Made by a program: the position numbers and the translations under genes. The notes beneath the pieces are model-generated. The model made no database searches and was not told the DNA's origin. It was given only the letters and a program-made list of their open reading frames with translations. Shown here piece after piece: positions 2-42,719 of a DNA stretch of 50,479 nucleotides; position 1 is the first letter of the stretch; each line of letters opens with the position of its first letter. The DNA lies in contig JBECKX010000105.1 in assembly GCA_040235515.1 (NCBI GenBank), positions 1 to 50,479 on the forward strand, in the 5' to 3' direction. The stretch comes from Candidatus Zixiibacteriota bacterium (lineage in GTDB: Bacteria; Zixibacteria; MSB-5A5; CAIYYT01).

Positions 2-2206
2 TTCGATACAGCTTCAAGCAAGAACCTCGTCTACGGAAACTTCATCGGCACGGCTGCGGATAGCACTACGGCGATCCCGAATGGCGCCGGTGTCCTGATC
101 GACAATGCCCATGAAAACTACCTTTCACAGATTCCAGCCGGAGCCAATCTGATCAGCCAGAACAGTGGCCCCGGTGTCTGGATACGCGGAGATGAAGCCT
201 GGGGCAACACGGTGCGCTTCAATAAGACCTTCAACAATGGCGGACTCGATATCGACTTAGGTGAACTCGGAGTAACCGCCAACGACCTGGGGGATATGGT
301 CACCGGAATCGACGACGATGCCGGACCGAACGACCAACTCAATTTCCCGGCCGGGGTGAGCTACGAGTACGACGAAGAGAATATCGTCACCGTGATCTCC
401 GGATTTCACGACACCCACGACCCGGAGCTTGACAGCATCGACATCTACTCGGTCTCCGAGCGCAACCCCTCCCGGTACGGTGGAGCGCGGCAGTACCTCG
501 GTACAGTGGTGCCGCAGGAGAACGGCTATTTCCGCTTCGATTTTCCGGGGCTTCCCGAAGAATTGCCCTACCCGTTCGTGAGCGCGACGGCGACTGACCC
601 GGATGGCTCAACTTCCGAATTCTCCTACGTCTGCTCAGACCCGCTCGGGGTCGGCAAGATCGACAATGAAGAGGATGGGCTTTGCGACTCATGGGAAGCT
701 GAGGGAATCGACTACGATGGCGACGGAGTCATTGACCTGCCGCTCAACCAGCCACCATTCGCAGCCTATAATCGGGTAAAAGACCTTTTTGTTGAAGTGG
801 ACTGGATGCAGGAGGATGGCATCAATTTCAAGCCGGTATCACTGATCGGTGTCTCGGTCGCGTTCAAGAACGCACCGGTTGACAATCCCAATTCCTCTCT
901 CGATGGCATCGAACTGCACGCGATGCTGTCCGACTCGGTGCCGCACCACACCTACGTCGACTTCAACGACGATCCGAGAGATCCGGGAGTAATCCTCTGG
1001 AAGGATTTCGAGGAGTTGAAGTGGGGCGCGCCGTTCATGCCTTGCGGTGAAGGAGCGGATCATGGCTGGTTCGGTAACCAGGAGGATCGGGCGGCGGACA
1101 ATTGTGCAGCGATCCTGGGGGCGAGGAAGCTGGTCTTCCGTTACTGCATCTTCGGTCATCATCACGCACAGGGGCCCGGCTCATCCGGAATTGCCGATTT
1201 GCCCGGAAACGATTTCATGGTGACGCTGGGCGGGTGGCCCGACTCAGTCGTGTTTGCCGCCGGTGCTATTCCGAAGCAGGATCCCGCCGACCCATTCTAT
1301 GATACGGAACTACGCATCGCCCGCGGCTATCTGGAGGAAGGCACTTTCATGCACGAACTGGGCCACACCCTGAACTTGCAGCACGGTGGAGCGGATGGCA
1401 TCAATTACAAACCCCACTACCTGAGCGTAATGAATTACAGCTACCAGGATCGAGGAGTAGTCAGCGGCCGGAAACTGGATTACTCAAGGGAAAACCTCGG
1501 CACCCTGGACGAAAACAACCTCGACGAAAATGTAGGGCTCTTCGGGTCGGCCGGTCTCAAAGCGGCCTACCTGCAGACGCGCGGCCCGGGAGACGCCGAT
1601 GACTACATCAAAGTTGTTCCGGCGAATATCTCTCCGATCGACTGGGATGGGATCGATAAGGATGGCGACGGTGATTTCTACAACGACAACCCTGTCATGA
1701 GCAATATCAACGGCATCGACATGACAAATCCCACAACTGCAGGTCTGCAGGAGCTTAAGGGCTACAACGACTGGTCCCACATCAAGCTGAGTTTCCGTAA
1801 CACGCAGGGCTTCCTCAGTCGCAGCAGCAATTCTGCCTTTGACAAAACGGCAGATGTGGCTGTCAGCCTGGCAAAGCGGACCGACTCCGACGGTGACGGC
1901 ATCGCCAACTTCGATGACAATTGTCCGCAGATTGCCAATCCGGATCAGCTCGATGAGAACAATAACGGAATCGGTGATGTCTGCGAGGCTTCCGAATTCG
2001 CCTGTGGTGATGTCGATGGATCCGGTGAGGTCATCATCTCAGACGCCGTCTATCTCGTCAACTATATCTTCGCCGGCGGTCCGGCGCCGCTTGACCCGTA
2101 TGGCGGCGATGTCGACTGCGACGGTCAGACAATCATTACGGACGCCGTCTATCTGGTCAATTGGATCTTCGCCGGTGGGCCGAGTCCGTGTGCTGCCTGC
2201 AGGTAA
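2..2206 (+). CDS. 5'-truncated modular protein: parallel beta-helix repeats, metzincin-like zinc metalloprotease, TSP3-like Ca-binding repeat, C-terminal dockerin
   Basis: The frame is open from position 2 (FDTASSKNLVYGNFIGT...), upstream of the tracked start at 212. Motifs: HELGHTLNLQH zinc site with downstream SVMNY Met-turn; DSDGDGIANFDDNCPQIANPDQLDENNNGIGDVC; duplicated dockerin CGDVDGSGEVIISDAVYLVNYIF / GDVDCDGQTIITDAVYLVNWIF (2003-2203). Confidence 0.8.
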   Translation, partial: FDTASSKNLVYGNFIGTAADSTTAIPNGAGVLIDNAHENYLSQIPAGANLISQNSGPGVWIRGDEAWGNTVRFNKTFNNGGLDIDLGELGVTANDLGDMVTGIDDDAGPNDQLNFPAGVSYEYDEENIVTVISGFHDTHDPELDSIDIYSVSERNPSRYGGARQYLGTVVPQENGYFRFDFPGLPEELPYPFVSATATDPDGSTSEFSYVCSDPLGVGKIDNEEDGLCDSWEAEGIDYDGDGVIDLPLNQPPFAAYNRVKDLFVEVDWMQEDGINFKPVSLIGVSVAFKNAPVDNPNSSLDGIELHAMLSDSVPHHTYVDFNDDPRDPGVILWKDFEELKWGAPFMPCGEGADHGWFGNQEDRAADNCAAILGARKLVFRYCIFGHHHAQGPGSSGIADLPGNDFMVTLGGWPDSVVFAAGAIPKQDPADPFYDTELRIARGYLEEGTFMHELGHTLNLQHGGADGINYKPHYLSVMNYSYQDRGVVSGRKLDYSRENLGTLDENNLDENVGLFGSAGLKAAYLQTRGPGDADDYIKVVPANISPIDWDGIDKDGDGDFYNDNPVMSNINGIDMTNPTTAGLQELKGYNDWSHIKLSFRNTQGFLSRSSNSAFDKTADVAVSLAKRTDSDGDGIANFDDNCPQIANPDQLDENNNGIGDVCEASEFACGDVDGSGEVIISDAVYLVNYIFAGGPAPLDPYGGDVDCDGQTIITDAVYLVNWIFAGGPSPCAACR

Positions 2207-2491
2207 GGGCCAGGTTCTTCAAATCGATGCGCTAACCGGAACGGCACAGCTTTCTCGGTGAAGACGCACGGAGTAAGATCAGCTAGATTCTTCCCGGCTA
2301 TCCACCCGGTGCGTCGACGGTCCTGCGCGATTATCCATTGACAAAGAAGGGCTGCGACCATTTCTTGGGCAGTCTCAGGGTGTTTTACCCGGCACGCATT
2401 GGCCCGCCTATTTCTGTCGTTTTAGTCGATAATTCGAGCCAATTAAACAAATAGCGAAATTCCGCCGGGCGTAACACTTCGGAGTTCATTT

Positions 2492-2508
2492 CTGACCAAC
2501 TTGGTCAG
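2492..2508. promoter_or_regulatory. Perfect 17-bp palindromic operator upstream of the suf operon (Rrf2/IscR-like)
   Basis: CTGACCAA-C-TTGGTCAG, ~95 bp upstream of the sufC ATG. Confidence 0.6.
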
Positions 2509-2603
2509 TATTGATCGTGACTTCGTCGCGCTGAGGCGGACGGAGCTGTGAGACAGCAATTACCAGGCTTGTGGAGAATTAATAGAGGATTATCGAGGAT
2601 AAC

Positions 2604-3392
2604 ATGGCCGATAAGAAACCACTGTTGGAGATCAGGAATTTCTCAGTCAAGATCGACAACAACGAGATCATCAAGAACCTTAACTTTTCCGTCAATGCTG
2701 GCGAAATCCATGCGATAATGGGACCAAATGGCTCAGGTAAGTCCACGCTGTGCTACGCACTGACCGGGCATCCTGAGTATGAAATCACCGGCGGTGAAGT
2801 CACCTACGATGGCAAAAACCTGCTTGAGATGGAAGTCGACGAACGCGCCAAGGCGGGTTTGTTCCTGGCATTCCAGTACCCGGTGGAAGTACCCGGTGTG
2901 ACCCTGCAGAATTTTCTGCGGACTGCGTACAATGCTCGCCATGGCAACAACGGTGATGGTCAGTCGAGCAAAGTCAACGTGCTGAAATTCTGGGGTTACC
3001 TCAAAGAGAAGTTGAAGATGCTTGATATCCCGGAAACCTTCGCGAATCGCTATCTCAATGAAGGGTTCTCCGGTGGTGAGAAGAAGCGCGCCGAGATTCT
3101 GCAGATGGCGGTTCTGGAGCCGAAGGTGGCTCTCCTCGACGAGACCGATTCGGGACTCGACATTGACGCACTCAAAGCAGTGGCGGATGGTGTCAACAAA
3201 TTGATGAACGAGAATATGGCAGTCGTCATGATCACCCACTATCAGCGCCTGCTCAACTATATAAAACCGCACTTTGTCCATATCATGTCGAATGGCAATA
3301 TCATCAAGACCGGCGGGCCGGAACTGGCGTTGGAGCTGGAAGAGAAAGGCTACGGCTGGATCACTGGTGACAAAGTTGAAGCGGAGGCATAA
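2604..3392 (+). CDS. sufC: Fe-S cluster assembly ATPase SufC
   Basis: GPNGSGKST Walker A, FLAFQYPVEVPGV, GFSGGEKKR, LDETDSGLDID; GAGGA RBS. Confidence 0.97.
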   Translation: MADKKPLLEIRNFSVKIDNNEIIKNLNFSVNAGEIHAIMGPNGSGKSTLCYALTGHPEYEITGGEVTYDGKNLLEMEVDERAKAGLFLAFQYPVEVPGVTLQNFLRTAYNARHGNNGDGQSSKVNVLKFWGYLKEKLKMLDIPETFANRYLNEGFSGGEKKRAEILQMAVLEPKVALLDETDSGLDIDALKAVADGVNKLMNENMAVVMITHYQRLLNYIKPHFVHIMSNGNIIKTGGPELALELEEKGYGWITGDKVEAEA

Positions 3393-3395
3393 GCT

Positions 3396-4814: not shown

Positions 4815-4816
4815 GG

Positions 4817-6145: not shown

Positions 6146-6276
6146 ACATCGAGAGAGCGGAGAGCAATACCAACACACTGCTGTCACAACTGTTTGCAGC
6201 AGTGGAAAGTGTGCCCACAGCATGTTGATCCCGGCTTTCTCAGGCGCAACGGCAATGCTGCGCTGCGGAGTTTCAG

Positions 6277-7963: not shown

Positions 7964-8084
7964 TCGCCGAGTCTGAAATCCCGCCGTTTTGGAAGCAATT
8001 CCGACCGCATTTAAGCTAAGTTCTGGCTTGAAGTTCTGTTACTAACTTAACAATAATTAAACAGTTAAATAAGGGGGTTTTCTG

Positions 8085-8352: not shown

Positions 8353-11300
8353 ATGTCACATCGACCGCGCTTGGCCATTGCTGCATTTTTCCTTGTAGCA
8401 TTGGCAAGCATGTTCACCTTCACAGGCTCTGCGTCTGCGCAGGTTGATCCCGGCTACGCCATCCGGATTGATTGTCCGATGGAAGTATCCGCCGCAGACG
8501 AGGGCGACTCAATCGAGGTCAAAGTCTACTACACCGCAGCCGAAGCGGTGGGTGCTTTCTCCCTCGGTTTCAAAGTTAATTCGCCTGATTTGGATATCGC
8601 CGGTATTTCTCCGGGACCGCTGTTGGGCTCATGGTTTATACCGACGGTGCTGTTCAATCCCACCGAGAATACCGCGCTTTATGGCGGATTGACCTTCAAT
8701 CCAGCCGCCACAATTCCTCCTGCCACCGATCAGTACCTGTTCTCCTTCTGGGTTAGGGTGCCGGTAGGTGTACAGCCCCAGTGTGCGTCTATCGACTCTA
8801 TCTTCGTCGCGCCGGGCGGTGTCTGGAACCTGACAACCTCCGTCGGTGGTGTCACCAGCAACAAGCGTCCTGATTTTATCGCTTGTGGCGGCGAGGAGAT
8901 CAACGTGAAGGGTGGTTGCGATGCTGCGCAGAACAACCCTCCGGTCGCGCTCTGCCAGCCGATAACCGTTGACGCAGATGAAAACTGCCAGGCAAACGCC
9001 AATATCGATAATGGTTCAAACGATCCCGATGGTGATGCTATCACAATTGTGCAGGTGCCCGCGGGACCTTATCCATTGGGCGAGACAATGGTCTCGCTGA
9101 TTGTTTCCGACGGGGAATTCGCTGATACCTGCGATGCTCTCGTTACCGTCAATGACAATACGGATCCTCAGGTTAACTGTCCGGCCGATATCGTGGTCGG
9201 CAATGATGCCGGTGTTTGCGGCGCGGTCGTCAACTTCGCAGCCACGGCTACAGATAACTGCTCCGATCCGGTCACAATCGTCTACAGCCAGGATCCCGGC
9301 ACCGAGTTCCCGATCGGAACCACCACGGTGACCGTGACGGCCACTGATGATGCCGGTAATTCAGCCCAGTGTACATTTGACGTTACAGTCAATGATACCG
9401 AGGCTCCGGTTGTTACCTGTCCTGATGATGTCACTGTAGTTGCCGCTGGCGGCGCTACTACCGCAGTGGTCAATTTCTCGCTTAATGACCCGACCGATAA
9501 CTGCCCCGGTGCCACGGTCTCTTCTGAACCGGCCTCGGGAACAGAGTTCGCTCTCGGTACTACTTCGGTTACAGTGACCGCTGAAGATGCCGCCGGCAAT
9601 ACCACTCAGTGCAGCTTCGACGTCACAGTCCAGGCTCCGCCGGTGGTCGCCGATATTCCTGACCAGACAATCGATCAGGGTGGATCCTTCGCCCAGATCA
9701 ATCTCGATGACTTCGTCGAAGATCTCGACAACGCCGACACCGAAATTACCTGGAGTGCCGGTCTGTTCAAGAGCCTCGGCGAAATCACGGTGGATATCGT
9801 TGATCGTGTTGCCACAATCAATGTGACTCCCGACTTCACCGGTTCTGCAGTGTTCGAGTTTACCGCCACCGATCCTGATGGCAACTCTGACTCAGACCAG
9901 GCGACATTCACGGTTAACACCCCTGAAAACGAGCCGCCGGTTGTAGCCGATATTCCCGATCAGACGGTGACTTCTGGTGACCCGTTCGTTCAGATCAATC
10001 TCGACGACTACGTCAGTGATCCTGACAACGCCGACAACGAAATTTCCTGGACCTCAGCCGGTGCGAACCAATTGACGGTCGCAATCGTTGATCGCGTCGC
10101 CACCATCACCTATCCGGGTGGATTCACCGGTGCCGAAACGGTTACCTTCACGGCTGCCGATCCGGGTGGTCTGTTCGACTCCGACCAGGCTACATTCACC
10201 GTGAATGCAGTCCCGAACGAGCCGCCGGTTGTCTCTGATATTCCTGATCAGACAATCGACTCCGACGGCGCATTCGCCTTTATTCCGCTCGATGATTACG
10301 TGACCGATCCCGACAACACCGACGAGGAAATGACCTGGGTAGCAAACGAGCTCTCCAATACAGCCGGTGTTTCGGTAACGATCGATGCCAATCGGGTTGC
10401 GATGCCGACCTTTACCAACGTCGGTGTTGCCACATTCGAATTCGTGGCTACCGATCCGGGCGGTCTCAGCGATGCTGATACGGTCACTTTCACCGTCAAC
10501 GAAGCCCTTAATCCCGACTTCGAAGTCCTGGCGTCACCGGATTCGATCTTCGTTCCGGAAGGAACCGCCACCGACTTCGCTTATAACGTGACCGTCAACG
10601 CCATCGACGGCTTTACCGGCGACGTCACCCTCAGCGTGAGCGGACTCCCGGCTGGCGTCGGTGCTGCGTTTGACACCAACCCTGTTTCAGTTCCGGGTAG
10701 CTCGATTCTTGAAGGCACCACCGCTGACGATACGCCGGCAGGTGTCTATGAGCTCGAAATCTCCGGTGCAACTTCGGCTAAGATCGTGGACCCGCACGTT
10801 GCGTATGTCTACCTCGTAGTCGAAGAGCAGGGCTGTATTGATCCGCCGGTCCCGATGGTCAGTGCAAACCAGTTTGATATCACGATCACCGAGGGCGAAA
10901 ACGCTGCCGATGAGATGTTCTATGTTACCAACGGTGCTTCCTGCGGTACGCTCTTCTGGCAGGCTATGTCAACTGAAGCCTGGGTATCGCCTGATCCGAC
11001 CAGCGGTTCAGTTGATGCCGGCGTGAGCCCTGGCGATGAAGTTACTCTTAGCTTCACCACCGCAGCGCTTGAGCCGGGCGATTACACCGCCCAGATCAAT
11101 GTCGTATCGGTGTTGCCGGGTGCCGGCAAGAGCGATGAAGGCGCCGCCGTCGTGATCAACCTTACGGTTGAGCCGATGGGCGAGTCAGCGGACACTGTTT
11201 ATGTCTCCAGCGCCTCCGCCTATCCGGGTGGTCATGCCGCTATCGAAATTAATTTCAAGAACGACGAAGAACTCGCCGCCCTCTCACTCGGTTTGATGTG

Positions 11301-13392
11301 GGATTCGGGTGATGTGACTCTCGATTCAGTCAGTTATGCGGGTTCGCGCGTCGCCTATATCAGCAGTAAGGTCACCACGATCAACAACGCTCAGCAGCAG
11401 CTTGCGCTCGGTGTACTGCGCGTGCCGCCGGAAGCTCTTATTCCGGCCGGTAGCGGTCTCTGGGCCACCCTGCACTACACGGTTGATCCGGCTGCCTCAC
11501 CGCAGTTCGTCATGATCGATTCAACCTTCATCCCGCCGGGTGTCGAGTTGCTCTTCAATGACGATATGGCTAACGCCATCTATCCGCAGTTCGTGAAGGG
11601 CCAGATCGAAATTCTGCCGGCGCAGGATGTCTGCATCAGCGGTATCGTGAAGGATCCTTCCGGCACTCCGATTCCGGGTGCTACTGTCATCCTGTTCGAC
11701 GATTTCGGAAATCAGGTTGATATGACCACCAGCGACGCCTCAGGATTCTATGAATTCTGCGTCGATGGTTCTATGATGGGTGATCTCTTCCACGTGCGCG
11801 CCTACGGCCCGGGATATTATCCTGGCTCCGAGGATGCGTTCGCTCCTGAAGATGACGCCGATGTCGTTCTTGCGCCGCTCGCACAGGTGGTTCAGCCGAC
11901 CTTCGAGTGGGTTGATCTCTTCTGTGACGGTGGTGCCTATGGCATCGACGGTCCGGTGCTGCCGGGCGACGTAATCGAAGCCTACGATCCTGATGGCGTG
12001 CTTTGCGGCCGTGAGGTCGTGGACCAGGTCGGTACCTTCGGCTTCATGCCGGTCTACGTGGACGATCCGTTCACTCCGGGTATCGACGAAGGTTGCGAGG
12101 TTGGTGATGAAATCACCCTTATGTGGAATGGTAACCCTGTCCTCCTTACCGGTACCCCGAATCCGTTGATCTGGACCGGTAACGGTGATCGCTACTCAGC
12201 CTGCTTCGAGGTTGAGACCCAGGTCACCAAGTGCATCGAACTGCACCAGGGCTGGAACCTGATTTCCTTCAACGTCAGCCTGCCGACCAGTGACATCGAA
12301 GATTTCTTCGCCGATGTCATGGACAACGTCGACGTGATCCTGAGCTTCGAGTCAGTCGCTCAGACCTACGATCCGGATCTGCCGCAGTTCTCGACCCTCT
12401 GGAATGTCGATAACTTCCACGGCTACTGGGTCCGCATGGATGTTGCCGACGAGATCTGCTTCACCGGCGACCTCGTTGATGCGGCCACTCCGATCGAACT
12501 CGAACTCAACTGGAACCTGGTCAGCTACCTGCCGGTCGACCCGATGTCACCTCCGGATGCGCTTGCCTCAATCTGGCAGAGTGTTATCGTGGTGCTCGGT
12601 TACGATGGCGGCGGTTTGACCTATGATCCGGCACATCCTGAGTTGTCCAATCTTGAAGAGATGGCCGAGTGCTTCGGCTACTGGATCAAGACGAACTCTG
12701 CTGGTACCCTGATCTACGAGGGCGTACCGGTGTTCGCAGGTGGTGAGCCTGATGCTACTCAGACACTCGCCAGCTACGTGCCGCGCGTCAATGTCACCAA
12801 CACCTGGGTCAACCTGTATGGTTCAGATGTCACCTTCAACGGCCAGACCCTCAAGGCTGGCGCGGTGATCTCTGCCTACAACGAGGCCGGTGCTCTGATT
12901 GGTGAGACCACGCTTCGTCAGGATGGCAAGTTCGGCTTCATGCCGATCTACGGCCCTGAGAACTTCTCGGCCGACTTCGCCAAGATCGCCAACGCCGGTA
13001 AGGTCAGCTTCAAGGTTGACGGTGTCGATGTCGTACAGACGATCGACTGGACCGCCAATGGTGACCGCATCGAACTGAGCCAGTTCTCGACCGAGAAGGG
13101 CAGCACGCTGCCGACCTCGTTCACGCTGGAGCAGAACTATCCGAACCCGTTCAACCCTGAGACCTCGATCCAGTACACGGTCGCGGCCGCAGGTAATGTC
13201 CGTATCGAGATCTACAACATGCTGGGTCAGAAGATCAGGACCCTGGTTGACGATCAGCACGCCGTCGGTACCTACACCGTCACGTGGCATGGACGGACCG
13301 ATTCGGGCTCGCAGGTAGCCTCTGGTATCTATCTCTATAAGATGGTTGCCGGTGACTACTCAGAAACCCGCAAGATGACGCTGCTGAAGTAA
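8353..13392 (+). CDS. Large secreted scaffoldin-like protein: signal peptide, cohesin-like module, 2 HYR, 3 Ig/cadherin-like repeats, BACON-like, second cohesin-like module, carboxypeptidase-regulatory-like domain, duplicated GFMP domain, T9SS/FlgD-Ig C-terminal domain
   Basis: ATG 8353 follows GGAGG (ORF track start is 8305). Signal peptide ends ...SASA|Q. HYR-type repeats DNTDPQVNCPADI / DTEAPVVTCPDDV; three PPVV(A/S)DIPDQT repeats; C-terminal LEQNYPNPFNPET...GIYLYKM...RKMTLLK. Confidence 0.8.
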   Translation: MSHRPRLAIAAFFLVALASMFTFTGSASAQVDPGYAIRIDCPMEVSAADEGDSIEVKVYYTAAEAVGAFSLGFKVNSPDLDIAGISPGPLLGSWFIPTVLFNPTENTALYGGLTFNPAATIPPATDQYLFSFWVRVPVGVQPQCASIDSIFVAPGGVWNLTTSVGGVTSNKRPDFIACGGEEINVKGGCDAAQNNPPVALCQPITVDADENCQANANIDNGSNDPDGDAITIVQVPAGPYPLGETMVSLIVSDGEFADTCDALVTVNDNTDPQVNCPADIVVGNDAGVCGAVVNFAATATDNCSDPVTIVYSQDPGTEFPIGTTTVTVTATDDAGNSAQCTFDVTVNDTEAPVVTCPDDVTVVAAGGATTAVVNFSLNDPTDNCPGATVSSEPASGTEFALGTTSVTVTAEDAAGNTTQCSFDVTVQAPPVVADIPDQTIDQGGSFAQINLDDFVEDLDNADTEITWSAGLFKSLGEITVDIVDRVATINVTPDFTGSAVFEFTATDPDGNSDSDQATFTVNTPENEPPVVADIPDQTVTSGDPFVQINLDDYVSDPDNADNEISWTSAGANQLTVAIVDRVATITYPGGFTGAETVTFTAADPGGLFDSDQATFTVNAVPNEPPVVSDIPDQTIDSDGAFAFIPLDDYVTDPDNTDEEMTWVANELSNTAGVSVTIDANRVAMPTFTNVGVATFEFVATDPGGLSDADTVTFTVNEALNPDFEVLASPDSIFVPEGTATDFAYNVTVNAIDGFTGDVTLSVSGLPAGVGAAFDTNPVSVPGSSILEGTTADDTPAGVYELEISGATSAKIVDPHVAYVYLVVEEQGCIDPPVPMVSANQFDITITEGENAADEMFYVTNGASCGTLFWQAMSTEAWVSPDPTSGSVDAGVSPGDEVTLSFTTAALEPGDYTAQINVVSVLPGAGKSDEGAAVVINLTVEPMGESADTVYVSSASAYPGGHAAIEINFKNDEELAALSLGLMWDSGDVTLDSVSYAGSRVAYISSKVTTINNAQQQLALGVLRVPPEALIPAGSGLWATLHYTVDPAASPQFVMIDSTFIPPGVELLFNDDMANAIYPQFVKGQIEILPAQDVCISGIVKDPSGTPIPGATVILFDDFGNQVDMTTSDASGFYEFCVDGSMMGDLFHVRAYGPGYYPGSEDAFAPEDDADVVLAPLAQVVQPTFEWVDLFCDGGAYGIDGPVLPGDVIEAYDPDGVLCGREVVDQVGTFGFMPVYVDDPFTPGIDEGCEVGDEITLMWNGNPVLLTGTPNPLIWTGNGDRYSACFEVETQVTKCIELHQGWNLISFNVSLPTSDIEDFFADVMDNVDVILSFESVAQTYDPDLPQFSTLWNVDNFHGYWVRMDVADEICFTGDLVDAATPIELELNWNLVSYLPVDPMSPPDALASIWQSVIVVLGYDGGGLTYDPAHPELSNLEEMAECFGYWIKTNSAGTLIYEGVPVFAGGEPDATQTLASYVPRVNVTNTWVNLYGSDVTFNGQTLKAGAVISAYNEAGALIGETTLRQDGKFGFMPIYGPENFSADFAKIANAGKVSFKVDGVDVVQTIDWTANGDRIELSQFSTEKGSTLPTSFTLEQNYPNPFNPETSIQYTVAAAGNVRIEIYNMLGQKIRTLVDDQHAVGTYTVTWHGRTDSGSQVASGIYLYKMVAGDYSETRKMTLLK

Positions 13393-13532: not shown

Positions 13533-13636
13533 CATCTGTCCCCCTGCTGCGATTAAAAAATGATGGCGTTTTTTTTAATCCTGCATAGATTGTTAAAAAA
13601 CTCTTTAACCAGTCTAAACCTGTGGAAGCCAACTAT

Positions 13637-14800
13637 ATGAAACGTGGTGCCACTGGCTACTACATTGAGTCAGCTGTCAGAGATGAGGTTGTACAGGCAT
13701 TTGTGCCAAACGCACTCCCACCCAAACCGCCATTGAAAATGACCGAAGAACTGCAAGAACTTAACTCTGAAGCGACACTTGCATTGGGTCGCCTGGATGG
13801 GCTGACGGCAATTCTGCCTGATACCTCCCTGTTCTTGTACATGTACATTCGCAAGGAGGCGGTATTGTCGTCACAAATCGAGGGAACACAATCATCCCTG
13901 TCAGAACTCCTGCTGTTTGAACGAGAAGAAATGCCTGGGATTCCGACCTCAGACGTGATCGAGATATCTAACTATGTTGCCGCGATGAAACATGGATTGA
14001 CGAAACTGAAGGAAGGGCTGCCGCTTTCCAGCAGACTCATAAGAGAAATCCACAGCGTGCTGTTATCATCTGGACGTGGGAGCAGCAGTGAGCCAGGCGA
14101 GTTTCGTAGATCGCAGAATTGGATCGGAGGAACGCGTCCAGGAAATGCTCGCTTTGTCCCCCCGCCGCACACTCACGTCATGGAATGCATGGGAGATCTA
14201 GAAAATTTCTTTCACAACATCCCGAGGAGAACGCCGACTCTAATCAAGGCAGCCATGGGGCATGTCCAATTCGAAACAATACATCCATTCCTGGACGGAG
14301 ATGGAAGAGTTGGACGGCTGCTCATTACATTCCTGCTATGCTCAGAGGCGATTCTGAGTGAGCCTATGTTATATCTAAGCTTATACTTCAAATCTCACAG
14401 GGAAGAATATTATGACCTGCTTCAGCGGGTTAGGACAGAGGGAATCTGGGAGGAGTGGATCGCATTCTTCCTTTCAGGAGTAAAGCAAACATCGGACCAG
14501 GCCATATCAACGGCACAGAGGCTGATAGGCCTCTTGAAGCGCGATCGAGCCTTAGTCGAGACTACACCGAAACAATCGAAGTCACTCCTCAGGGTGTTCA
14601 ATTACCTCACGGAAAATCCGATTACAACCGCCTCCAGCGTGGCGTCGCATATTGATGTTTCTTTTCCAACCGCGAATAGCGCTCTAAAATCACTTCAAGG
14701 GTTGGGCATTGTGAAGGAGTTGACAGGCCGCTCACAGAATAGGATTTTTGCATATCAGGAGTATCTGGACATCCTCAATGAAGGTGCAGAACCGCTCTAA
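13637..14800 (+). CDS. Fic family protein (N-terminal Fic_N-type region with class II inhibitory motif, C-terminal HTH)
   Basis: SSQIEGT inhibitory motif, PGEFRRSQNWIGG, HPFLDGDGRVGR Fic motif, C-terminal winged-HTH-like segment; more AT-rich than its flanks. ATG 13637 preferred over GTG 13622. Confidence 0.92.
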   Translation: MKRGATGYYIESAVRDEVVQAFVPNALPPKPPLKMTEELQELNSEATLALGRLDGLTAILPDTSLFLYMYIRKEAVLSSQIEGTQSSLSELLLFEREEMPGIPTSDVIEISNYVAAMKHGLTKLKEGLPLSSRLIREIHSVLLSSGRGSSSEPGEFRRSQNWIGGTRPGNARFVPPPHTHVMECMGDLENFFHNIPRRTPTLIKAAMGHVQFETIHPFLDGDGRVGRLLITFLLCSEAILSEPMLYLSLYFKSHREEYYDLLQRVRTEGIWEEWIAFFLSGVKQTSDQAISTAQRLIGLLKRDRALVETTPKQSKSLLRVFNYLTENPITTASSVASHIDVSFPTANSALKSLQGLGIVKELTGRSQNRIFAYQEYLDILNEGAEPL

Positions 14801-15136: not shown

Positions 15137-16468
15137 CTAACAAGTCGGAGCTGGACCTCCGCCAAAGATGAAGTTGATCAGATGGACCGCATCGCCTATC
15201 GATACTGTCCCGTTGCCGTCTGCATCACCATTACAAGGCGTGGGTCCACCACCGAAGATGTAGTTGATGATGAAGACAGCGTCGCCAATCGAGATCGCAG
15301 TGCTACCGTCGGCATCACCGCAGTCGCAGGTCTGCGCCATCAGCCCGTGCGGGCCGGGAGCAGTAGGGGTAACACCATGACAGACCGTACAGTCACTGAG
15401 AGTGCCGGCATGACCCTGCAAGGCGATGAATTGGACATTGTCACGAGCAACTTCGCTCGGCGCAATTGCATGCGGTTCGCCATGACAGGCACTGCAGAAG
15501 AGTCCGCCATGCCCGCGCGACTCGCGGAACAACTTGCCCGGCTCTTCTGCATAGTTCGCGCCATGACATTGCGTCGCACCGCAGCTCGGCTCCTCCAGCC
15601 ATGGTTCGCGGCCATTGCTGATGCTCTCACCCACCTGGCGTACGCTGCCATGGCAGTCCTGGCAGACCATGCCATGCTCAGACTTCATTACCCCCCGCAA
15701 ACACTGGGTCTGCGATCCGGGATGGCAACGATAACAGTCATTCGTGCGCTCCGCGTGCTGCTTGTGAATCACTTCCGACAGTGACTCCAACCCCGGCTGC
15801 CCGGTTGTTCCCAGCGCATTCGATGAATGACAGCTGGCGCAGAGAATTGGAGTATTGTTGGGATTAAACCCACCCTCGTCCTCATGTTCGTTCAGGATGT
15901 TCAGTTCGCTGCTGTGGCATCCGGAGCTGACACAGCCAATCTCGTTTGACACCGGAACCACCGGCTCTGCGGTTGCCAGCAGCGTGTTTGACTGGTCATA
16001 GAGCTTGAGAAGGCCCAACTGAAACGGGTCTTCATTAACGAGATCGGCATCGACAAATGGCGTAATTGGAATTCCCTCGACATGGAAGTAGTTCTCGATT
16101 GCGGCCATATCTCCCGACAGAGCCGCACCGGTCAATCCGATGTTGTCGGGCAAACTGACACCGAAGAGCTGGTCCTCATAATCCCAGAAATTAGTCTTAC
16201 CCACTGAATAGGTATTGCCGGGAATTTCGTATGTGACGTGCAGACCAGTAGTGACGACCTCCGGCAAGTGGGTTTCATCACCGACTTTAATGGCCTGTGC
16301 TCTGACGTTGTTGTAAGGGGGCAGGACTACGATCCGGGAGAAATCCTTATTGCTGCAGTGCATACCAAGATCATTCCAGCCAATGATTATGTAGTCTTGT
16401 GCGAAAAGCGGCGTCGCGATTGCCAACACAATAGCGGCAAACACGACGAAACACGCCACGTGTCTCAT
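15137..16468 (-). CDS. Secreted multiheme c-type cytochrome (5 CxxCH + 2 CX4CH) with C-terminal dockerin
   Basis: Signal peptide ...PLFA|Q. CxxCH motifs CASCH, CYRCH, CQDCH, CSACH, CTVCH; extended motifs CVSSGCH, CGATQCH. Dockerin CGDADGSTAISIGDAVFIINYIFGGGP / GDADGNGTVSIGDAVHLINFIFGGGPAP. Confidence 0.88.
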   Translation of the reverse strand: MRHVACFVVFAAIVLAIATPLFAQDYIIIGWNDLGMHCSNKDFSRIVVLPPYNNVRAQAIKVGDETHLPEVVTTGLHVTYEIPGNTYSVGKTNFWDYEDQLFGVSLPDNIGLTGAALSGDMAAIENYFHVEGIPITPFVDADLVNEDPFQLGLLKLYDQSNTLLATAEPVVPVSNEIGCVSSGCHSSELNILNEHEDEGGFNPNNTPILCASCHSSNALGTTGQPGLESLSEVIHKQHAERTNDCYRCHPGSQTQCLRGVMKSEHGMVCQDCHGSVRQVGESISNGREPWLEEPSCGATQCHGANYAEEPGKLFRESRGHGGLFCSACHGEPHAIAPSEVARDNVQFIALQGHAGTLSDCTVCHGVTPTAPGPHGLMAQTCDCGDADGSTAISIGDAVFIINYIFGGGPTPCNGDADGNGTVSIGDAVHLINFIFGGGPAPTC

Positions 16469-26471: not shown

Positions 26472-26495
26472 GGAAGAGGATTCGAAGGTTTACGG

Positions 26496-35020: not shown

Positions 35021-35053
35021 TTGCTGTCTTTCATGAATCGAATATTAGCTGAC

Positions 35054-35083
35054 AAAGCCCCGGTTTCGCCGGGGCTTTTTTTT
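35054..35083 (+). terminator. Intrinsic terminator after secF
   Basis: AAAGCCCCGG-TTTCG-CCGGGGCTTTTTTTT. Confidence 0.9.
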
Positions 35084-35128
35084 GCCCAATCGCCCCGCAA
35101 TTACGTAGTTTGGTGATATGAAGAGCTT

Positions 35129-35575: not shown

Positions 35576-35585
35576 ACGAAGTGTC

Positions 35586-36278
35586 CTAGTAATCTATCCT
35601 TGCTCCTTTGCGTAGGTTATGCCGCGCACACAGAAGTTGGATGTTTTTGGCCGTAATGGACGTTCCGCCTTTTGAGAACGGTAGAATATGGTCGAAGTGG
35701 AGATTGTCTGTCGCCCCACATTCCACGCACTTTCCAGCGTCTCGTTTCCACACTTCAAGTTTGACTTCTGACGGAATTAATCGATCATGCCGCAGCTTTA
35801 CATCTACACTTTCGCTAGTCTCTGCCTCATCTGCCAGCTCGAGCTTAAACTTGAACACTTTACGACCCTGCTTTGATTCCAGCCAAGAATCAGTTAACTT
35901 GAATACACCGTTGTATACCCAAATTCCGTTCTTAATCTTTTCATACACTCTGACAAGTTCTGCGGCAGTTCCCCTGTTCTTATGAGATTGTGCAGCTTGG
36001 TGGAAGAGCCCATTCTGAGTGAGCCGTCCACTCTCAGTGGTTTCCTGTTGATCCAGCGCCTTTGGGTTGACAACATCTTGGGTCCTAGGGACGTCATGAC
36101 CCTCATAGATTATCGTACTACCCCCCTGTGTGAGCTGATCCTCATAGGGGGCGTCCTTGCGGCGGCTCATAAGAATCACACTTAGGCCGTTCTTCAATTT
36201 GAAATTCATGCCACGTTGCAGATTGACACCTTCGCGTTGACACATGTCCAAGTATGAAATAATGTCACCGGTTTGCAT
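35586..36278 (-). CDS. HNH endonuclease with SRA/YDG-like N-terminal domain
   Basis: C-terminal CVECG...HFDHILPFSKGG...NIQLLCARHN. N-terminal YED...IIYEG...DQ...VRVYE...YNGVF...W...VFKFKL resembles the SRA pattern. Confidence 0.8.
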   Translation of the reverse strand: MQTGDIISYLDMCQREGVNLQRGMNFKLKNGLSVILMSRRKDAPYEDQLTQGGSTIIYEGHDVPRTQDVVNPKALDQQETTESGRLTQNGLFHQAAQSHKNRGTAAELVRVYEKIKNGIWVYNGVFKLTDSWLESKQGRKVFKFKLELADEAETSESVDVKLRHDRLIPSEVKLEVWKRDAGKCVECGATDNLHFDHILPFSKGGTSITAKNIQLLCARHNLRKGARIDY

Positions 36279-36280
36279 CT

Positions 36281-37594: not shown

Positions 37595-37756
37595 TCCGCA
37601 TCGCCTGCCGAAGATACTGAATAGCCAACTTATTGGAGCGCAGCCGTTAAACCATATTGGTGAAATTGAATTGTGTGAATGGTTCATTGTCGTGAGCCTT
37701 CCACGAAATCAGGTGAACAAGACCGGATGAAATTCGTATATTGTTTACAGGCATCG

Positions 37757-37797
37757 GGCTACAGCCGCCGTAGCATTTTGGCTACAGCTGCCGGAGC
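37757..37797. repeat. Two imperfect 18-bp direct repeats (23-bp period) in the divergent promoter region
   Basis: GGCTACAGCCGCCGTAGC and GGCTACAGCTGCCGGAGC. Confidence 0.6.
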
Positions 37798-37887
37798 CGT
37801 TTAACTGATGATATGTGCTGTCCGTTGTCGCAGACAATCACTCAGATTAATTTCACAATTCTAGGGAAACTTCATAGAGGAAAATAG

Positions 37888-39396
37888 ATGTTTAGAAAAA
37901 TCGCTCTTGTCATCTTTCTTGGAATGACCGCCCTCGCAGTGGTTGTCGCCCTCAAGAGTGATCGCAGAGTCACTACCAACTCGCAGGAAGCGTACGAACA
38001 TTACCTGGCTGGAGTAGATTTCTACGAGAAATTCTATCTCCGCGACGCCGTCAACGAGTTCGAGAAAGCGGTGGCGCTCGACAGCAATTTCGCGATGGCT
38101 CAAGGTGAGTTGGCGATGGCCTACTATTCTCGCGGCTTCCACAAGAAGGGCAAGGAGATGCAGGAACTGGCGATCAAGAATCGCCCCAACGTTACTCCAC
38201 GTGAACAGATGATCATCGATGTCTGGGAGCAACAGTGGAGCTCGAATTCTGACAGTGCATTCGTGCTCGCCAGGAAATTGGCGGAGGCGTACCCGAACGA
38301 CCTCAAGGCCCTTGCGATTGTGGCAGGAATGGAATTCAGCCAGGACAACTGGGAGCAGGCACTGCAGTATTATCAGCAGGCACTGAGGATCCAGCCTGAT
38401 TTTGCCCCCGCGTACAATATGCTTGGCTACCTCAATTTCTATCTGGGACGCTATGATGACGCGCTCGACATGCTCGACAAGTATCTCGAGTACGCCAGGG
38501 ACCAGGCTAACCCGCATGACTCGCGTGGTGAAATTCTGCATGCCACAGGTCGCTATGAGGATGCGATCGCTGCGTTCCGGCAGGCATTCAACATCAACCC
38601 TGAGTTCGATTTCGCCGTGACGCACATGGCCGCGTCGTATCTTGAAATGGGACAGATGTCGCAGGTTGACTACTGCTATCAGATTCTATTGAAGGATTCG
38701 CCCAATGAACTCAAACGGCTCTCCTATCTGACCGACTACGCACAGTCGTTAACCTACCGCGACAACCTCGATTCAGCCATCAGCGTATGCCACTATGTCA
38801 TCGAGAATGATCCGCAGCTCGATGAGGGCGGCGTGACCGCGGCTCCGGTAGTTCTTGGGTTAATTTACTACCGTCAGCGCGACGCGGCTGCAATGAACCA
38901 GGTCTGGGATAGTTGCCGGGTCTATATGGCGCGCTCGATCGGGAAGAATCCGGAACTGAAAGATGCGCCGACCTACGAGCGCTGGAACGCACTGATGGAA
39001 GCCACCTCGGCCGATCTGGCCGGTGACCTCGATAGGTCTGAAGCTCAATTTGCGGAATCGCTCGGCAAATTGAGTCGTCCGAACGACAAGATATACTACC
39101 GGCTTTACTACGCCGATGTACTTAACCGCAATAACAAATCGAACCTTGCGATCTCAGAATTGCAGAAGAATCTCTCGATCAATCCAAATCATGCTCCCAC
39201 GCTGAGGCGACTGGCAGATATCTATGATGAGCAGGGAGATAAAGCTTCGGCACAGGCGTATCGAGAAAAAGCAGCCGAGGTGTGGAAGAATGCTGATCCA
39301 GATTTCAAACCGATGCTGGAACTGCGCGAGAAATTGAATCAGATGGTTACCGCGCAGAAGGGTAACCGCAAATCCCCCGGCCTGGCCTCAAACTGA
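37888..39396 (+). CDS. Exported or membrane-anchored tetratricopeptide repeat protein
   Basis: N-terminal hydrophobic helix; EAYEHYLAG, FEKAVALDSNFAMA, ALRIQPDFAPAYNMLG, NPHDSRGEIL TPR repeats. Confidence 0.88.
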   Translation: MFRKIALVIFLGMTALAVVVALKSDRRVTTNSQEAYEHYLAGVDFYEKFYLRDAVNEFEKAVALDSNFAMAQGELAMAYYSRGFHKKGKEMQELAIKNRPNVTPREQMIIDVWEQQWSSNSDSAFVLARKLAEAYPNDLKALAIVAGMEFSQDNWEQALQYYQQALRIQPDFAPAYNMLGYLNFYLGRYDDALDMLDKYLEYARDQANPHDSRGEILHATGRYEDAIAAFRQAFNINPEFDFAVTHMAASYLEMGQMSQVDYCYQILLKDSPNELKRLSYLTDYAQSLTYRDNLDSAISVCHYVIENDPQLDEGGVTAAPVVLGLIYYRQRDAAAMNQVWDSCRVYMARSIGKNPELKDAPTYERWNALMEATSADLAGDLDRSEAQFAESLGKLSRPNDKIYYRLYYADVLNRNNKSNLAISELQKNLSINPNHAPTLRRLADIYDEQGDKASAQAYREKAAEVWKNADPDFKPMLELREKLNQMVTAQKGNRKSPGLASN

Positions 39397-39461
39397 GTTC
39401 GCTACATCCCGGCCGGTCTGACTTCCGTCCTCGAACCAGGAGCCGGACAATCTGACCTTCA

Positions 39462-39878
39462 CTACTCGCCGATGATCTTAATCAAGGCGCGTTTCTTGCG
39501 TTTGCCGTCAAACTCGCCGTAGAAAATCTGTTCCCACGGCCCGAAATCGAGCCTTCCCTCGGTGATAGCCACCACCACCTCGCGGCCCATGATCGTGCGC
39601 TTGAGGTGCGCATCAGCATTGTCCTCAAAACCGTTGTGCTTGTACTGCGAGTACGGTTTTTCCGGAGCGAGCTTCTCCAACCAGACCTCATAATCCTGAT
39701 GCAAACCCGGCTCGTCATCGTTGATGAATACCGATGCCGTAATGTGCATCGCGTTAACCAGCACCAATCCTTCGGTTACTCCACTCTCCCTGACGGCATC
39801 CTCTACCTCGGGAGTGATATTGACCAGTTGTCTGCGCTTATCGGTGTTGAACCAAAGTTCCTTGCGGTAACTCTTCAT
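39462..39878 (-). CDS. yjbQ: YjbQ/UPF0047 family protein
   Basis: [30 protein letters not shown]. Confidence 0.92.
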
Positions 39879-39987
39879 ATCGTGATTCCTCGTTCATCCA
39901 GGTTCTGTCGTTATGATCTAGTGCTATCGCTGCGGCTGCAGGTTACTGTGTGCGGGGTGATGGGACTCGCCGGCGGTGCCGGAGCCG

Positions 39988-40842
39988 CTACTTGCCCGCC
40001 TGCTCGAACAGCTCCTTGAGGCGACGCAGGGTTGCGGGAGCGTGTCCGGCAAAGTGATTGTTAATGTAAACCAGGGTCGGAATCTGACGCTCGGTGAGTT
40101 TCAGCAAGAACTCCGACCAGCGCGTCAGTCGATCCATCTGGAACAGGACTTCCTTCTCCCAGGTCTTCGTAATCTTCTCAATCTCCTTGCGGTCACCGAT
40201 CAGTCGGATATAGCAAAAATCGGTCGTGATCGGATCGAATTTCTTCTCGATTTCGTCCGCGTGCGGCATCCAGGCCTGGTCTACCAGCACGAGCGAGACA
40301 TCATGCTTCCGCAGCATCTCCGCATACGCTTTACTCAGCCACGCCTTGTTTCTGATCTCAACGGCGTAGCGGAAAGTCGTTGGCAGCTCACCCAGGAAGG
40401 CATCCAGGCGGTCGATAAACTCGTTCTTGCCGGGGAATACGCTCTTGTTGAAATAGGGGAATTGGATCAACAGCTTGCCGCAACGATCACCCAGTCGTGA
40501 CATAACGTTGAGAAACTTGTCGCGCTCTTTGAATGTTTCGTCCCCCTGCAGGATGACCTCACGATTCGGTGTGGCTTTCTCCCCCCCATGCACAATCGAG
40601 CGGGGAAACTTGGCGGAGATCAGGAAGCCAGCGGGCGTCTTATCCACCCAGCTATCGACCATCTCTCTCGAGGGGATACGGTAGTAGGTGGCATCCACCT
40701 CCACAGTATCAAACTGCGAGGCGTAGTAGGAGAGAAACTCCGCAGGTTGTGTACCCTCCGGATAGAACGGTCCCACCCAGTCACTGGAGGAGAAGGAGGA
40801 TGTACCGAAGCGAATGAGAGGGGATACCGGCGTCATCGTCAT
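39988..40842 (-). CDS. DUF72 (YecE-like) protein
   Basis: GTSSFS..DWVGPFYP, VEVDATYYRIP, AVEIRN..W, YINNH..GHAP. Confidence 0.9.
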   Translation of the reverse strand: MTMTPVSPLIRFGTSSFSSSDWVGPFYPEGTQPAEFLSYYASQFDTVEVDATYYRIPSREMVDSWVDKTPAGFLISAKFPRSIVHGGEKATPNREVILQGDETFKERDKFLNVMSRLGDRCGKLLIQFPYFNKSVFPGKNEFIDRLDAFLGELPTTFRYAVEIRNKAWLSKAYAEMLRKHDVSLVLVDQAWMPHADEIEKKFDPITTDFCYIRLIGDRKEIEKITKTWEKEVLFQMDRLTRWSEFLLKLTERQIPTLVYINNHFAGHAPATLRRLKELFEQAGK

Positions 40843-40881
40843 CTTCGCTAAGATAAGCCAAACGGCTCAAATTGAAAACGA

Positions 40882-40913
40882 AAAGCACGCTCCGTATCTC
40901 AAGAGCGTGCTTT
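40882..40913 (-). terminator. Intrinsic terminator after the dockerin protein gene
   Basis: AAAGCACGCTC...GAGCGTGCTTT with a T-rich tail on the minus strand. Confidence 0.75.
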
Positions 40914-40946
40914 GATAGAACGTAGTAGTCTATCTCAACTGGGAAG

Positions 40947-42719
40947 CTACGGGCATGCTGCACAAGGAGCAGGTCCCCCAGCGAACAGGTAATTAACCAG
41001 GTAGACGCAATCACCGATATTCGTTTTGCCATCACAATTGACGTCGCCTATAGTGCCTTGGTTAAAGCTAGTGCAACCGAGGTTAAAAATCCAGTTAAGA
41101 AGGCAGACAATATCGCTAATGATCACTTGACCATCTCCATCGATGTCGCCGCAATCTCGGATGGATAGATTCACTGTAAACGTATCTCTGTTACAGGCAT
41201 CAGCGACAACAAAGGTAATGGAATACGACTCAATCAGCGAGTCGCTCGAAGCGCCATAAAGGGAATCTCCCGATAAGTTAAGCCAACTTGGAATACTGAG
41301 GTATTGCACAGTGTGAGTCGCGTCATCCGCATCAGAGATTTGCGGCTCGTAGCTCCAGAATGTTGAGAGAGCAATTTGGAACGGCCCACTGTTTTGAAGG
41401 ACCGGATGAAAGTTGATGCAGTTGTCGCAATCATCATCCACTCCATCCATGTCCGCGTCCACGCCACTGACGCAGTCATTGTCGACTGTCGGTCCTGTAA
41501 GATATATCTCTGGATTACCATCACGATTGTCTTGGAATACTACCCACCATTTTCCTGGTTCTGCTGATCTTGAGGCAATATCGGGATTGGTGGAGCTGCT
41601 CGGGTTGTTCGTGAGCCTCTCGTCGACGTAAGCATTGGAGCCATACGCTTTGGACAAGTAAATTTCTGAGTCCCCGTGACGACTATCCTGCCACACGATG
41701 TATCCGAATGACGGGTCGTTTGCGACGCGAGGTAGCGAAGCCGTGCCAACCACGTCATTCACGCGGGCAATACCATGGTCGCCATACAAGTTGTAGACAT
41801 TCCCGGAGCCTTGACAGGCGAGCCAAGGAAACGAGCCGGAGAATCCAGCCGCGCAGGACTCGTAGTCGCCGTCGGCGTGTCGTCGATAGTCTGTCAGGCC
41901 GCAGCTCGGATAGGCGACTCCCGCAACATAGACACCATCCTGGAAGTTCTGCGCAAGGTCATACCAAGCTACAAATGCAGTTCCGTTTGCCAATAGAGTG
42001 ACGGCAGGTTCTTTTTCAAAGCTCGGCAGCGTTCCGGCGTTAAGTCGTTGCACACAAACCTGTTCAAGATTACTGTTTCCATGTCGCATATAGACGTCCT
42101 GATCAGTCGGAGCGCGTCGATGGTAAACGATAGCATTGCTACCGGAAGGAAGAGCTGAAATCTCCGGATCCATACTTAAGTTCGAAGAGACCGCAAACGG
42201 CGCAACCAGGAGACTACCGTTCACATCAACTTTAGCGGCATAGATTGTCCCCCAGGGTGTATCTTCCTGCCAGACAATGTAGCTGTTTCCTAGGTCGTCG
42301 ACTGCAACTCCCGGCGCCACAGAATGCGAGCTAGTATTGCTCACCCGTATCGGAAGCGTCTGCGGCACTCCGTTTCTATCGAATCTTTGCCAATACACTT
42401 CAAAGTCGGGGCCACCATCACGCTTGTCCTCCCAAACCAGATAGAGGTACTGTGAATCAACCACCGCCTTTGGATGGTCGGAGGCTGCAGCGTCGAATGT
42501 CAACCTGACTATTTGATACTCCTCGAGCTCAGAGGCGGCCGAGGGTTCCAGCGGTGTGGAGTGAGTTGTATTGGTTCGATCATGCTCCGACTGTGAGGCA
42601 TCATCAACAACGATACCGACCTGCCCAATGGCATTCGTATTTAGCATAGACAAGAACGCAATAGACAATAGCGCAGTCACCAGATAAGTATATCCAGCGC
42701 TTCCTGACCCTTTCTTCAT
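40947..42719 (-). CDS. Secreted propeller-repeat protein with TSP3-like motif, Ig-like domain and C-terminal dockerin
   Basis: ATG 42719 after GGAGG. Repeats VWEDKRDG..EVY / VWQDSRHG..EIY / VFQDNRDG..EIY; DADMDGVDDDCDNC; dockerin CGDIDGDGQVIISDIVCLLNWIF / GDVNCDGKTNIGDCVYLVNYLFAGGPAP. Confidence 0.8.
   Translation of the reverse strand: MKKGSGSAGYTYLVTALLSIAFLSMLNTNAIGQVGIVVDDASQSEHDRTNTTHSTPLEPSAASELEEYQIVRLTFDAAASDHPKAVVDSQYLYLVWEDKRDGGPDFEVYWQRFDRNGVPQTLPIRVSNTSSHSVAPGVAVDDLGNSYIVWQEDTPWGTIYAAKVDVNGSLLVAPFAVSSNLSMDPEISALPSGSNAIVYHRRAPTDQDVYMRHGNSNLEQVCVQRLNAGTLPSFEKEPAVTLLANGTAFVAWYDLAQNFQDGVYVAGVAYPSCGLTDYRRHADGDYESCAAGFSGSFPWLACQGSGNVYNLYGDHGIARVNDVVGTASLPRVANDPSFGYIVWQDSRHGDSEIYLSKAYGSNAYVDERLTNNPSSSTNPDIASRSAEPGKWWVVFQDNRDGNPEIYLTGPTVDNDCVSGVDADMDGVDDDCDNCINFHPVLQNSGPFQIALSTFWSYEPQISDADDATHTVQYLSIPSWLNLSGDSLYGASSDSLIESYSITFVVADACNRDTFTVNLSIRDCGDIDGDGQVIISDIVCLLNWIFNLGCTSFNQGTIGDVNCDGKTNIGDCVYLVNYLFAGGPAPCAACP

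Follow-up and report, generated by a model that had tools for sequence, protein, structure and literature searches.

Two predicted assemblies are the closest described counterparts of the system considered here: the cellulosome-like complex proposed in silico for Candidatus Stygibacter, of the Cloacimonadota (PMC8542988), and the ‘Planctosome’ of freshwater Planctomycetes, a hypothetical cohesin–dockerin system (PMC6461901). Dockerin-rich giant proteins have also been reported from the Omnitrophota (10.1101/2023.11.21.568195), and a survey of cellulosomes (PMC11557425) left out metagenome-derived genomes. A further point of reference is secretion by the type IX system (T9SS) of Bacteroidota, in which a C-terminal sorting domain (CTD) serves as signal for export, PorV acts as shuttle for the substrate and PorU cleaves and anchors it (PMC10202324, PMC10994853). 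The subject of this report is a stretch of 50,479 nucleotides from a Candidatus Zixiibacteriota bacterium (contig JBECKX010000105.1; hereafter the window), which encodes one scaffold-like protein with two cohesin-fold modules and a T9SS tail, and three proteins that end in dockerins. Our reading, to which we give a probability of about 0.7, is that the roughly 100 dockerin-ended signal-peptide proteins of this genome bind cohesins on T9SS-tailed proteins, holding proteases, propellers and a cytochrome at the cell surface. In the literature searched, which was largely open-access and taken without supplements, no report was found linking Zixibacteria to dockerin, cohesin or type IX secretion.

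Relation to described assemblies

The Zixibacteria share with Candidatus Stygibacter a diderm host of the FCB (Fibrobacterota–Chlorobiota–Bacteroidota) group, a scaffoldin-like cohesin protein with a CTD, and dockerin-tagged peptidases, which in Stygibacter are of families S8 and C25; both systems rest on in silico work (PMC8542988). The Stygibacter complex differs in that it is described for one genus and has a 3,755-aa scaffold with tandem cohesins, carbohydrate-binding modules (CBM2/3) and cargo that includes the glycoside hydrolases (GH) GH18 and GH57 (PMC8542988). In Zixibacteria, by contrast, there are about 100 cargo proteins per genome across most of the phylum, many proteins carry one or two cohesins, and no GH cargo is found. 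The dockerin ‘dialects’ and the swapping of CTD and dockerin described below belong to the Zixibacteria side and are absent from the Stygibacter discussion in section 7 of that paper (PMC8542988). In the Planctosome, too, cohesin–dockerin pairs are proposed to display peptidases (M12B, M14), and HYR and TSP3 domains are present; it is non-cellulolytic and, as here, predicted; it differs in its few components and in having a lamin-tail domain as the proposed anchor instead of a T9SS CTD (PMC6461901). A cohesin scaffold with dockerin-tagged peptidases in a non-cellulolytic diderm places the present system among this hypothetical kind.

The assembly code is also like that of the cellulosome, but with no GH cargo and no CBM on the scaffold the system does not belong to that class. 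The best Protein Data Bank (PDB) sequence matches of cohesin 2 and dockerin 2 of the window, obtained separately, fall in one solved pair, ScaC/ScaB of Acetivibrio cellulolyticus (4uyp, 4uyq). The fold is that of type I cellulosomal pairs (Z 19.0, tied among type I cohesins), the two dockerin repeats are similar to each other as in those pairs, and, as in ScaB and type I dockerins, Ile at loop position 10 is followed by a DAV helix start. The A. cellulolyticus pair differs in belonging to the cellulosome of a Firmicute, which has glycoside hydrolases and is anchored to the cell wall, and shows 22% identity only, and the Zixibacteria tails differ from cellulosomal dockerins in their conserved cysteines and proline-glycine-rich end.

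As in the type A substrates of Bacteroidota, a signal peptide is combined with a CTD, and the SprA translocon, PorV shuttle and PorU sortase are present (PMC10202324, PMC10994853). Unlike in Bacteroidota, most extracellular-type proteins here lack a CTD, and GldM/PorM gave no match (the controls being silent too). The main text of the T9SS review has no piggy-back or hitch-hiking wording. What the present analysis adds is a cytochrome dockerin that follows the dialect of its genome, the CTD/dockerin swap, the placing of the dockerin-poor families on one branch, and a conserved minimal cohesin–CTD protein.

Cohesin folds, dockerin tails and export genes

The window (contig C10) is part of a genome, G000, of 3.59 Mb in 218 contigs that is 100% complete. 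Pfam identifies the lipopolysaccharide genes kdsB, kdsA, lptC and lptB in the window, so the host is a diderm. Among named sequences, the closest homolog of the HPr kinase comes from candidate division Zixibacteria (73% identity); of six named NCBI entries, five are labelled Zixibacteria and one FCB group. The best-matching DNA sequencing runs are sediment metagenomes from one study, and no RNA runs were among the matches listed. The four open reading frames (ORFs) on which an earlier sequence-only reading was built are all present (Table 1), with GGAGG-type ribosome sites upstream of the starts at 8353 and 42719.

Table 1. Features of the cohesin- and dockerin-bearing genes of the window
Feature	Position	Strand	Basis
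Protein truncated at its 5' end, with a beta-helix end, a zinc metallopeptidase-like domain that has no annotation, a TSP3 repeat and a C-terminal dockerin	2..2206	+	Pfam, homolog motifs
Metzincin-like zinc-binding motif HExxH-x5-H	1352..1384	+	Translation
Dockerin 1	1988..2203	+	Pfam Dockerin_1 17.1 bits (cut-off 22.9)
Scaffold-like protein, 1679 aa	8353..13392	+	Pfam, TIGR04183, translation
Cohesin-fold module 1	8449..8922	+	AlphaFold2 pLDDT 90.7, structure match to 4ums
Cohesin-fold module 2	11185..11625	+	AlphaFold2 pLDDT 96.5, structure matches
T9SS type A C-terminal sorting domain (CTD)	13138..13377	+	TIGR04183 39.6 bits (cut-off 23), PF18962 28.8 bits
Multiheme cytochrome c, signal peptide, C-terminal dockerin	15137..16468	-	Pfam, motif count
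Dockerin 2	15140..15337	-	Pfam Dockerin_1 23.5 bits; best PDB match 4uyq_B (A. cellulolyticus ScaB dockerin), E 8.4e-5
Signal-peptide protein with probable beta-propeller repeats, a C-terminal dockerin and, by eye, short segments resembling TSP3 and Ig	40947..42719	-	
Dockerin 3	40950..41165	-	Pfam Dockerin_1 23.5 bits

The scaffold-like protein starts with a signal peptide, read from the translated sequence, and continues through cohesin 1, spacers of the HYR and Ig types (Big_9, BACON-like), cohesin 2, and CarboxypepD_reg and unannotated repeats to a T9SS type A tail that the sequence-only reading had overlooked. Signal peptide and CTD together give it the make-up of a T9SS type A substrate; as a protein with predicted cohesin folds, in which the Pfam scan finds no catalytic family, it resembles a cellulosome scaffold. 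The scan finds no CBM family in it. Its two modules had been proposed as cohesin-like from their sequence pattern, and this is borne out by confident AlphaFold2 models of both, each a predicted nine-stranded cohesin beta-sandwich. The best matches to solved structures have Z 16.6 for module 1 (4ums; root-mean-square deviation 2.3 over 141 residues) and Z 19.0 for module 2 (1.9 over 140). For both modules ranks 1–20 are all cohesins, the first non-cohesin appearing only at Z 10.1 and 11.5, respectively, and a generic Ig fold is rejected by these matches. For module 2, Foldseek gives a best E of 2.5e-10, the top Atlas matches are cohesin clusters (0.94–0.95), and the best PDB match of its profile is 4uyp_A (E 0.0013). 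The modules are homologous to one another (hhalign probability 99.5), and 7 of 30 aligned homologs match Pfam Cohesin PF00963 at E<=0.01.

That three window proteins end in dockerins was also claimed earlier and holds: two of the three tails pass the PF00404 cut-off, and a profile of 30 such tails retrieves solved dockerins (best E 2.6e-7). The first of these proteins has no visible signal peptide because the contig start cuts its ORF, and its 5' part was not found, no contig of the assembly overlapping the window start. Its family is unannotated and has 2337 matches; of the 120 homologs listed, 119 retain the zinc-binding motif, one homolog weakly matches Reprolysin_5, and the nearest long ones (P0199, P0207 and P0240) finish in a T9SS tail. 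For the peptidase body, a search of solved structures gave no match at E<=1. The cytochrome has five CxxCH and two CX4CH motifs and close relatives in 36 of the 201 genomes that make up the phylum set. One ortholog match (L211; G143:C23:472417-473478) contains an in-frame TAG, and four metagenome homologs (L244, L252, L279 and L290) carry tandem heme modules (6–10 CxxCH in 875–932 aa). The third protein matches TIGR04275 weakly (E 6.3e-10; 38.6 bits, under the cut-off of 85) and leads in the Atlas search to BNR-type clusters (0.85–0.87); the ‘adhesion’ role once assigned to it is putative, given this weak beta-propeller repeat match.

Genome-wide, an iterated profile built from the three window tails and run on the genome contigs detects 126 dockerin domains, which lie in 114 ORFs spread over 73 contigs; 101 of them sit at the C-terminus and five strong ones at the N-terminus, and some weak, divergent ones are internal. 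Pfam alone supports 93 of 119 scored candidates. By a rough heuristic, signal-peptide-like N-termini occur in 88 of 103 dockerin ORFs against 338 of 924 background frames. A CTD accompanies none of the 101 C-terminal dockerins, the CTD motif being present in 29 ORFs of the genome (34 by TIGR04183). The cohesin profile, also iterated, returns 20 modules in 18 ORFs, eight of which have a CTD, seven a C-terminal dockerin and three neither, with fold prediction covering the two window modules; Pfam adds a few cohesin places. The two-cohesin protein is therefore one of 18 cohesin-like ORFs, and its pairing with the three window dockerins is a candidate only. One further 533-aa ORF (G000:C53:27277-28875; L091) contains five dockerin-like domains, and another (C58:7766-10240) a cohesin-like module with three dockerins.

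The four window genes had been taken as a complex in their own right. The modular parts, cohesin folds and dockerins, are real enough, but a dedicated four-gene locus is ruled out: three dockerin genes in 50 kb does not stand out from the genome background (expected 1.3–1.6, P 0.15–0.22), and in none of 10 related loci is the scaffold gene accompanied by the cytochrome or the peptidase body. The genes are instead a chance sample of a genome- and phylum-wide system. Scaffold orthologs adjoin suf and/or kdsB-pyrG in all 10 fetched family loci (both in eight), and other dockerin genes lie near the scaffold gene in four. The two-cohesin form is typical of family f1, and a search of named genomes with cohesin 2 gave one weak locus only. 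Between scaffold and kdsB the window has a Fic-domain gene (13622-14800) and the cytochrome gene; in a congener, G043, the scaffold gene directly adjoins kdsB.

Pfam annotation of all 114 dockerin ORFs (E<=1e-4, best five families per protein) identifies 22 peptidases: seven S8, four M43, three M1, two M14, and one each of M12, M28, S1, M4, M23 and C39. Six further ORFs have an HExxH motif. Other cargo includes the cytochrome, a lipase, a peptidyl-arginine deiminase (PAD), a sugar dehydrogenase and numerous proteins of the propeller, TSP3 or beta-helix type, and many ORFs are without a family. No glycoside hydrolase family appears among the best five of any of the 114, in agreement with the earlier view of the cargo as non-cellulolytic. 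GH5 has two matches in the genome, both outside dockerin ORFs, and GH9 was not found in the genome search; four cargo proteins with a beta-helix and two with a BNR propeller might nonetheless act on glycans. Breakdown of protein at the cell surface is the likely ecological role, some of the cargo being of redox type.

The genome encodes SprA (458 bits, cut-off 200), PorU (602 bits, cut-off 420) and two PorV-family genes. For the GldLM/PorLM motor the search covered GldM/PorM (PF12080, TIGR03517), which was not found, control genomes being equally silent. PorU is apparently split across two contig ends (G000:C82:2-5768, L159 and L194; C199:24792-26042), and downstream of it is an ORF of 1016 aa whose C-terminal end carries a PorV-family domain. 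Of two secretin loci, one looks like a type IV pilus cluster and the other like an MSHA/type II secretion cluster. Elsewhere, G000:C126:9049-18207 holds, in order, a TonB-receptor-like gene, a large secreted gene, a PorV/PorP-like barrel and a DUF7901 protein with a dockerin. At G000:C80:2308-3129, a PEP-CTERM-like tail (by eye) on an ORF adjoining a stand-alone cohesin-like gene suggests a third sorting system.

A protein of minimal design, consisting of a signal peptide, a cohesin-like module and a CTD and nothing else, is encoded at G000:C139:1281-2144 (L126). Its module aligns with cohesin 2 at an hhalign probability of 99.0. Near-full-length matches (rows at E<=2.5e-40) occur in 147 of the 201 genomes at 39–77% identity, or in 201 of 201 if matches through the CTD alone are included. 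Among the 54 genomes without a near-full-length match are all 24 genomes of a dockerin-poor set discussed below, which match through the CTD alone, and most of the dockerin-rich families f9, f11, f12 and f16. As a general receptor, this protein may be better suited than the scaffold of the window. Two more of the same minimal type are at C97:3911-4879 and C210:1984-2934.

Across the phylum, SprA is matched in 197 genomes, cohesin 2 in 186 and dockerin 1 in 196, the window tail undercounting other dialects (in G012, 16 matches against 64 with that genome's own tail); the five genomes without a dockerin match are likewise without a cohesin match. The CTD motif is present on 97 of 157 cohesin-module proteins. 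Cohesin and dockerin counts correlate in 41 chosen genomes (rho 0.80, kin not being independent).

Dockerin dialects and the swapping of tails

The dockerins consist of two Ca-loop/helix repeats of about 22 residues with ligand positions 1, 3, 5, 9 and 12, as in type I dockerins. In the 82 domains parsed for sequence statistics, with a pattern that demanded Asp at positions 1 and 12 and either Asp or Asn at position 3, position 5 is Ser, Asn or Asp and position 9 mostly Ser or Thr. Positions 10, 11, 14, 17, 18 and 21, which, following type I numbering, we take to be the recognition positions, are near-fixed and mostly hydrophobic (Ile, Gly/Ser/Ala, Val, Ile, Asn and Phe); since they are similar in both repeats, a dual binding mode is suggested.

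The 82 tails are 63% identical in amino acids, and so strong a likeness within one genome might be expected of a recently copied, idle calcium-binding appendage that forms no complex. Fourfold-site identity is indeed slightly over the shuffled null (0.363 against 0.325, sd 0.005). These sites are nevertheless almost saturated while the amino acids are conserved, which rules out recent DNA copying as the cause of the uniformity. The near-universal presence of dockerins in the phylum, and of a dockerin-like tail on all 30 fetched cytochrome orthologs (of 37 matches), further makes an idle tail highly improbable. The tails appear rather to be under protein-level, genome-specific selection.

The cytochrome gives a view of this selection, its body being 69–79% identical across families while its tail varies by lineage. 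When 13 genomes were searched with the tail of the G044 cytochrome, the first 35 matches were all G044 dockerins (34 besides itself); with that of G012, the first 61 came from G012 and its congener G011, the best from G000 having E 3.7e-5. In the two genomes tested, then, the dockerin of a conserved cytochrome matches, by sequence, the dialect of its own genome. Concerted change across unrelated proteins is what is expected from a shared partner, though it does not name that partner. Species-specific clostridial cohesin–dockerin pairs show a similar concerted pattern.

The dockerin-poor set comprises 24 genomes of four families, selected as cohesin- and dockerin-poor. Counted with Pfam PF00404, also an undercount (24 in G012), they have 0–30 dockerins and from 53 to at least 107 CTDs (16 of the CTD counts being lower bounds), against 13–119 dockerins and 23–65 CTDs in 17 genomes drawn from 15 other families. 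When a dockerin-tagged M14 peptidase of G000 is compared with the 24 genomes, its best homolog ends in a CTD in 22 (21 called by hidden Markov model, one by a cut-off motif), is cut by a contig end in two, and ends in a dockerin in none. Both PAD homologs found end in a CTD, three of five dockerin-poor genomes having no PAD homolog. For the cytochrome, 78 metagenome homologs were compared: 35 terminate in a CTD and 9 in a dockerin, and the others are short, cut or of another kind. On sequence comparison, the dockerin occupies the place held by a CTD on the homologs of relatives. An ORF at G000:C36:11387-13081 (L083:8471-10165) has a FlgD-Ig (CTD-like) domain with a C-terminal dockerin directly after it, a possible tail-swap intermediate.

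The absence of a CTD from dockerin cargo also fits an arrangement in which the pairs form in the periplasm, or as a head-to-tail structural mesh, and the cargo stays unexported. The seven ORFs with both cohesin and C-terminal dockerin could polymerise, neither tail is present on three cohesin-like ORFs, and c-type cytochromes mature in the periplasm. However, the CTD on homologs of this cargo makes export of those homologs likely, and the cargo types (subtilases, M4, M12, M43, FG-GAP and TSP3 proteins) are typically extracellular, so that we consider this arrangement improbable.

Proposed capture of cargo by exported cohesins

The best reading of these sequence patterns is that the dockerin serves as a surrogate tag for surface targeting and is captured by cohesins that the T9SS has exported. 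We infer that the scaffolds and small cohesin–CTD proteins pass SprA and PorV and are anchored after PorU cleavage, as in Bacteroidota. Ca2+-loaded dockerins would then bind the cohesins via helix positions 10, 11, 14, 17, 18 and 21, and be displayed at the surface, the dockerin doing the job of a CTD on the same enzymes as in relatives. CTD-less cargo may cross the outer membrane by riding a cohesin–CTD protein through SprA, a route to which we give rather less than half of the weight of our reading; the remainder goes to a separate secretin route followed by capture. In its strongest form, most Zixibacteria would have moved the T9SS signal off the cargo, dockerin enzymes binding a small cohesin–CTD adaptor in the periplasm and being co-exported with it via SprA, which is conceivable and for now speculative. 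An equally tentative corollary is that the secretion signal acts in trans, the genome-specific dockerin code selecting what is displayed, the multiheme cytochrome included. The swap of CTD and dockerin raises the concrete question for the T9SS of whether a secretion signal can be supplied in trans.

Several observations weigh against capture by cohesins. Neither window module matches Pfam Cohesin PF00963, their identity to solved cohesins is 9–22%, and a common fold does not demonstrate a common function. The scaffold has only two cohesins, there are about five dockerins per cohesin-like module genome-wide, and the modules differ so strongly in sequence that many may serve dedicated partners. 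Ten genomes in the CTD-rich branch have dockerins but no cohesin 2 match, and six second-ranked M14 homologs (paralogs) in that branch finish in dockerins. The FG-GAP/ASPIC cargo, one of three tail-swap queries, has no homolog in five dockerin-poor genomes. The dockerin/CTD trade-off is a single contrast, since the four dockerin-poor families form one side of one branch (100/98) in an unrooted tree made from the CTP synthase of 30 genomes; its basis is thus a single branch in the tree of one gene, and in the other 17 genomes there is none (rho 0.04).

Part of this evidence would suit a dockerin tail that is an export or anchor signal for a receptor other than a cohesin, such as the membrane surface or a component of the T9SS or of a secretin, with the cohesins as adhesive or stalk domains that bind few dedicated partners. 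The swap with the CTD at the same junction, the very hydrophobic and near-invariant helix face, the heterogeneity of the cohesin-like modules and the ten dockerin-bearing genomes just mentioned all fit such a receptor. It does not account for the correlation of cohesin and dockerin counts, qualified as that is by kinship, for the CTD motif on most cohesin-module proteins, or for the distribution of the minimal signal–cohesin–CTD protein, which in all 24 dockerin-poor genomes is reduced to a CTD-only match. A non-cohesin receptor is, on balance, unlikely.

If binding to cohesins holds, assembly on a cellulosome scale (60–150 dockerins in many genomes) would be the main surface display of a widespread, uncultured sediment phylum, one that targets protein, not cellulose, and is coupled to the T9SS across the outer membrane. 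The dialects would then supply many orthogonal, likely disulfide-stabilised cohesin–dockerin pairs for protein engineering. The modules are small, and production in Escherichia coli is possible without culturing the host.

Elsewhere in the window, the ORF at 35586-36278 (- strand) has an HNH-type nuclease motif at its C-terminal end (by eye), with housekeeping genes around it.

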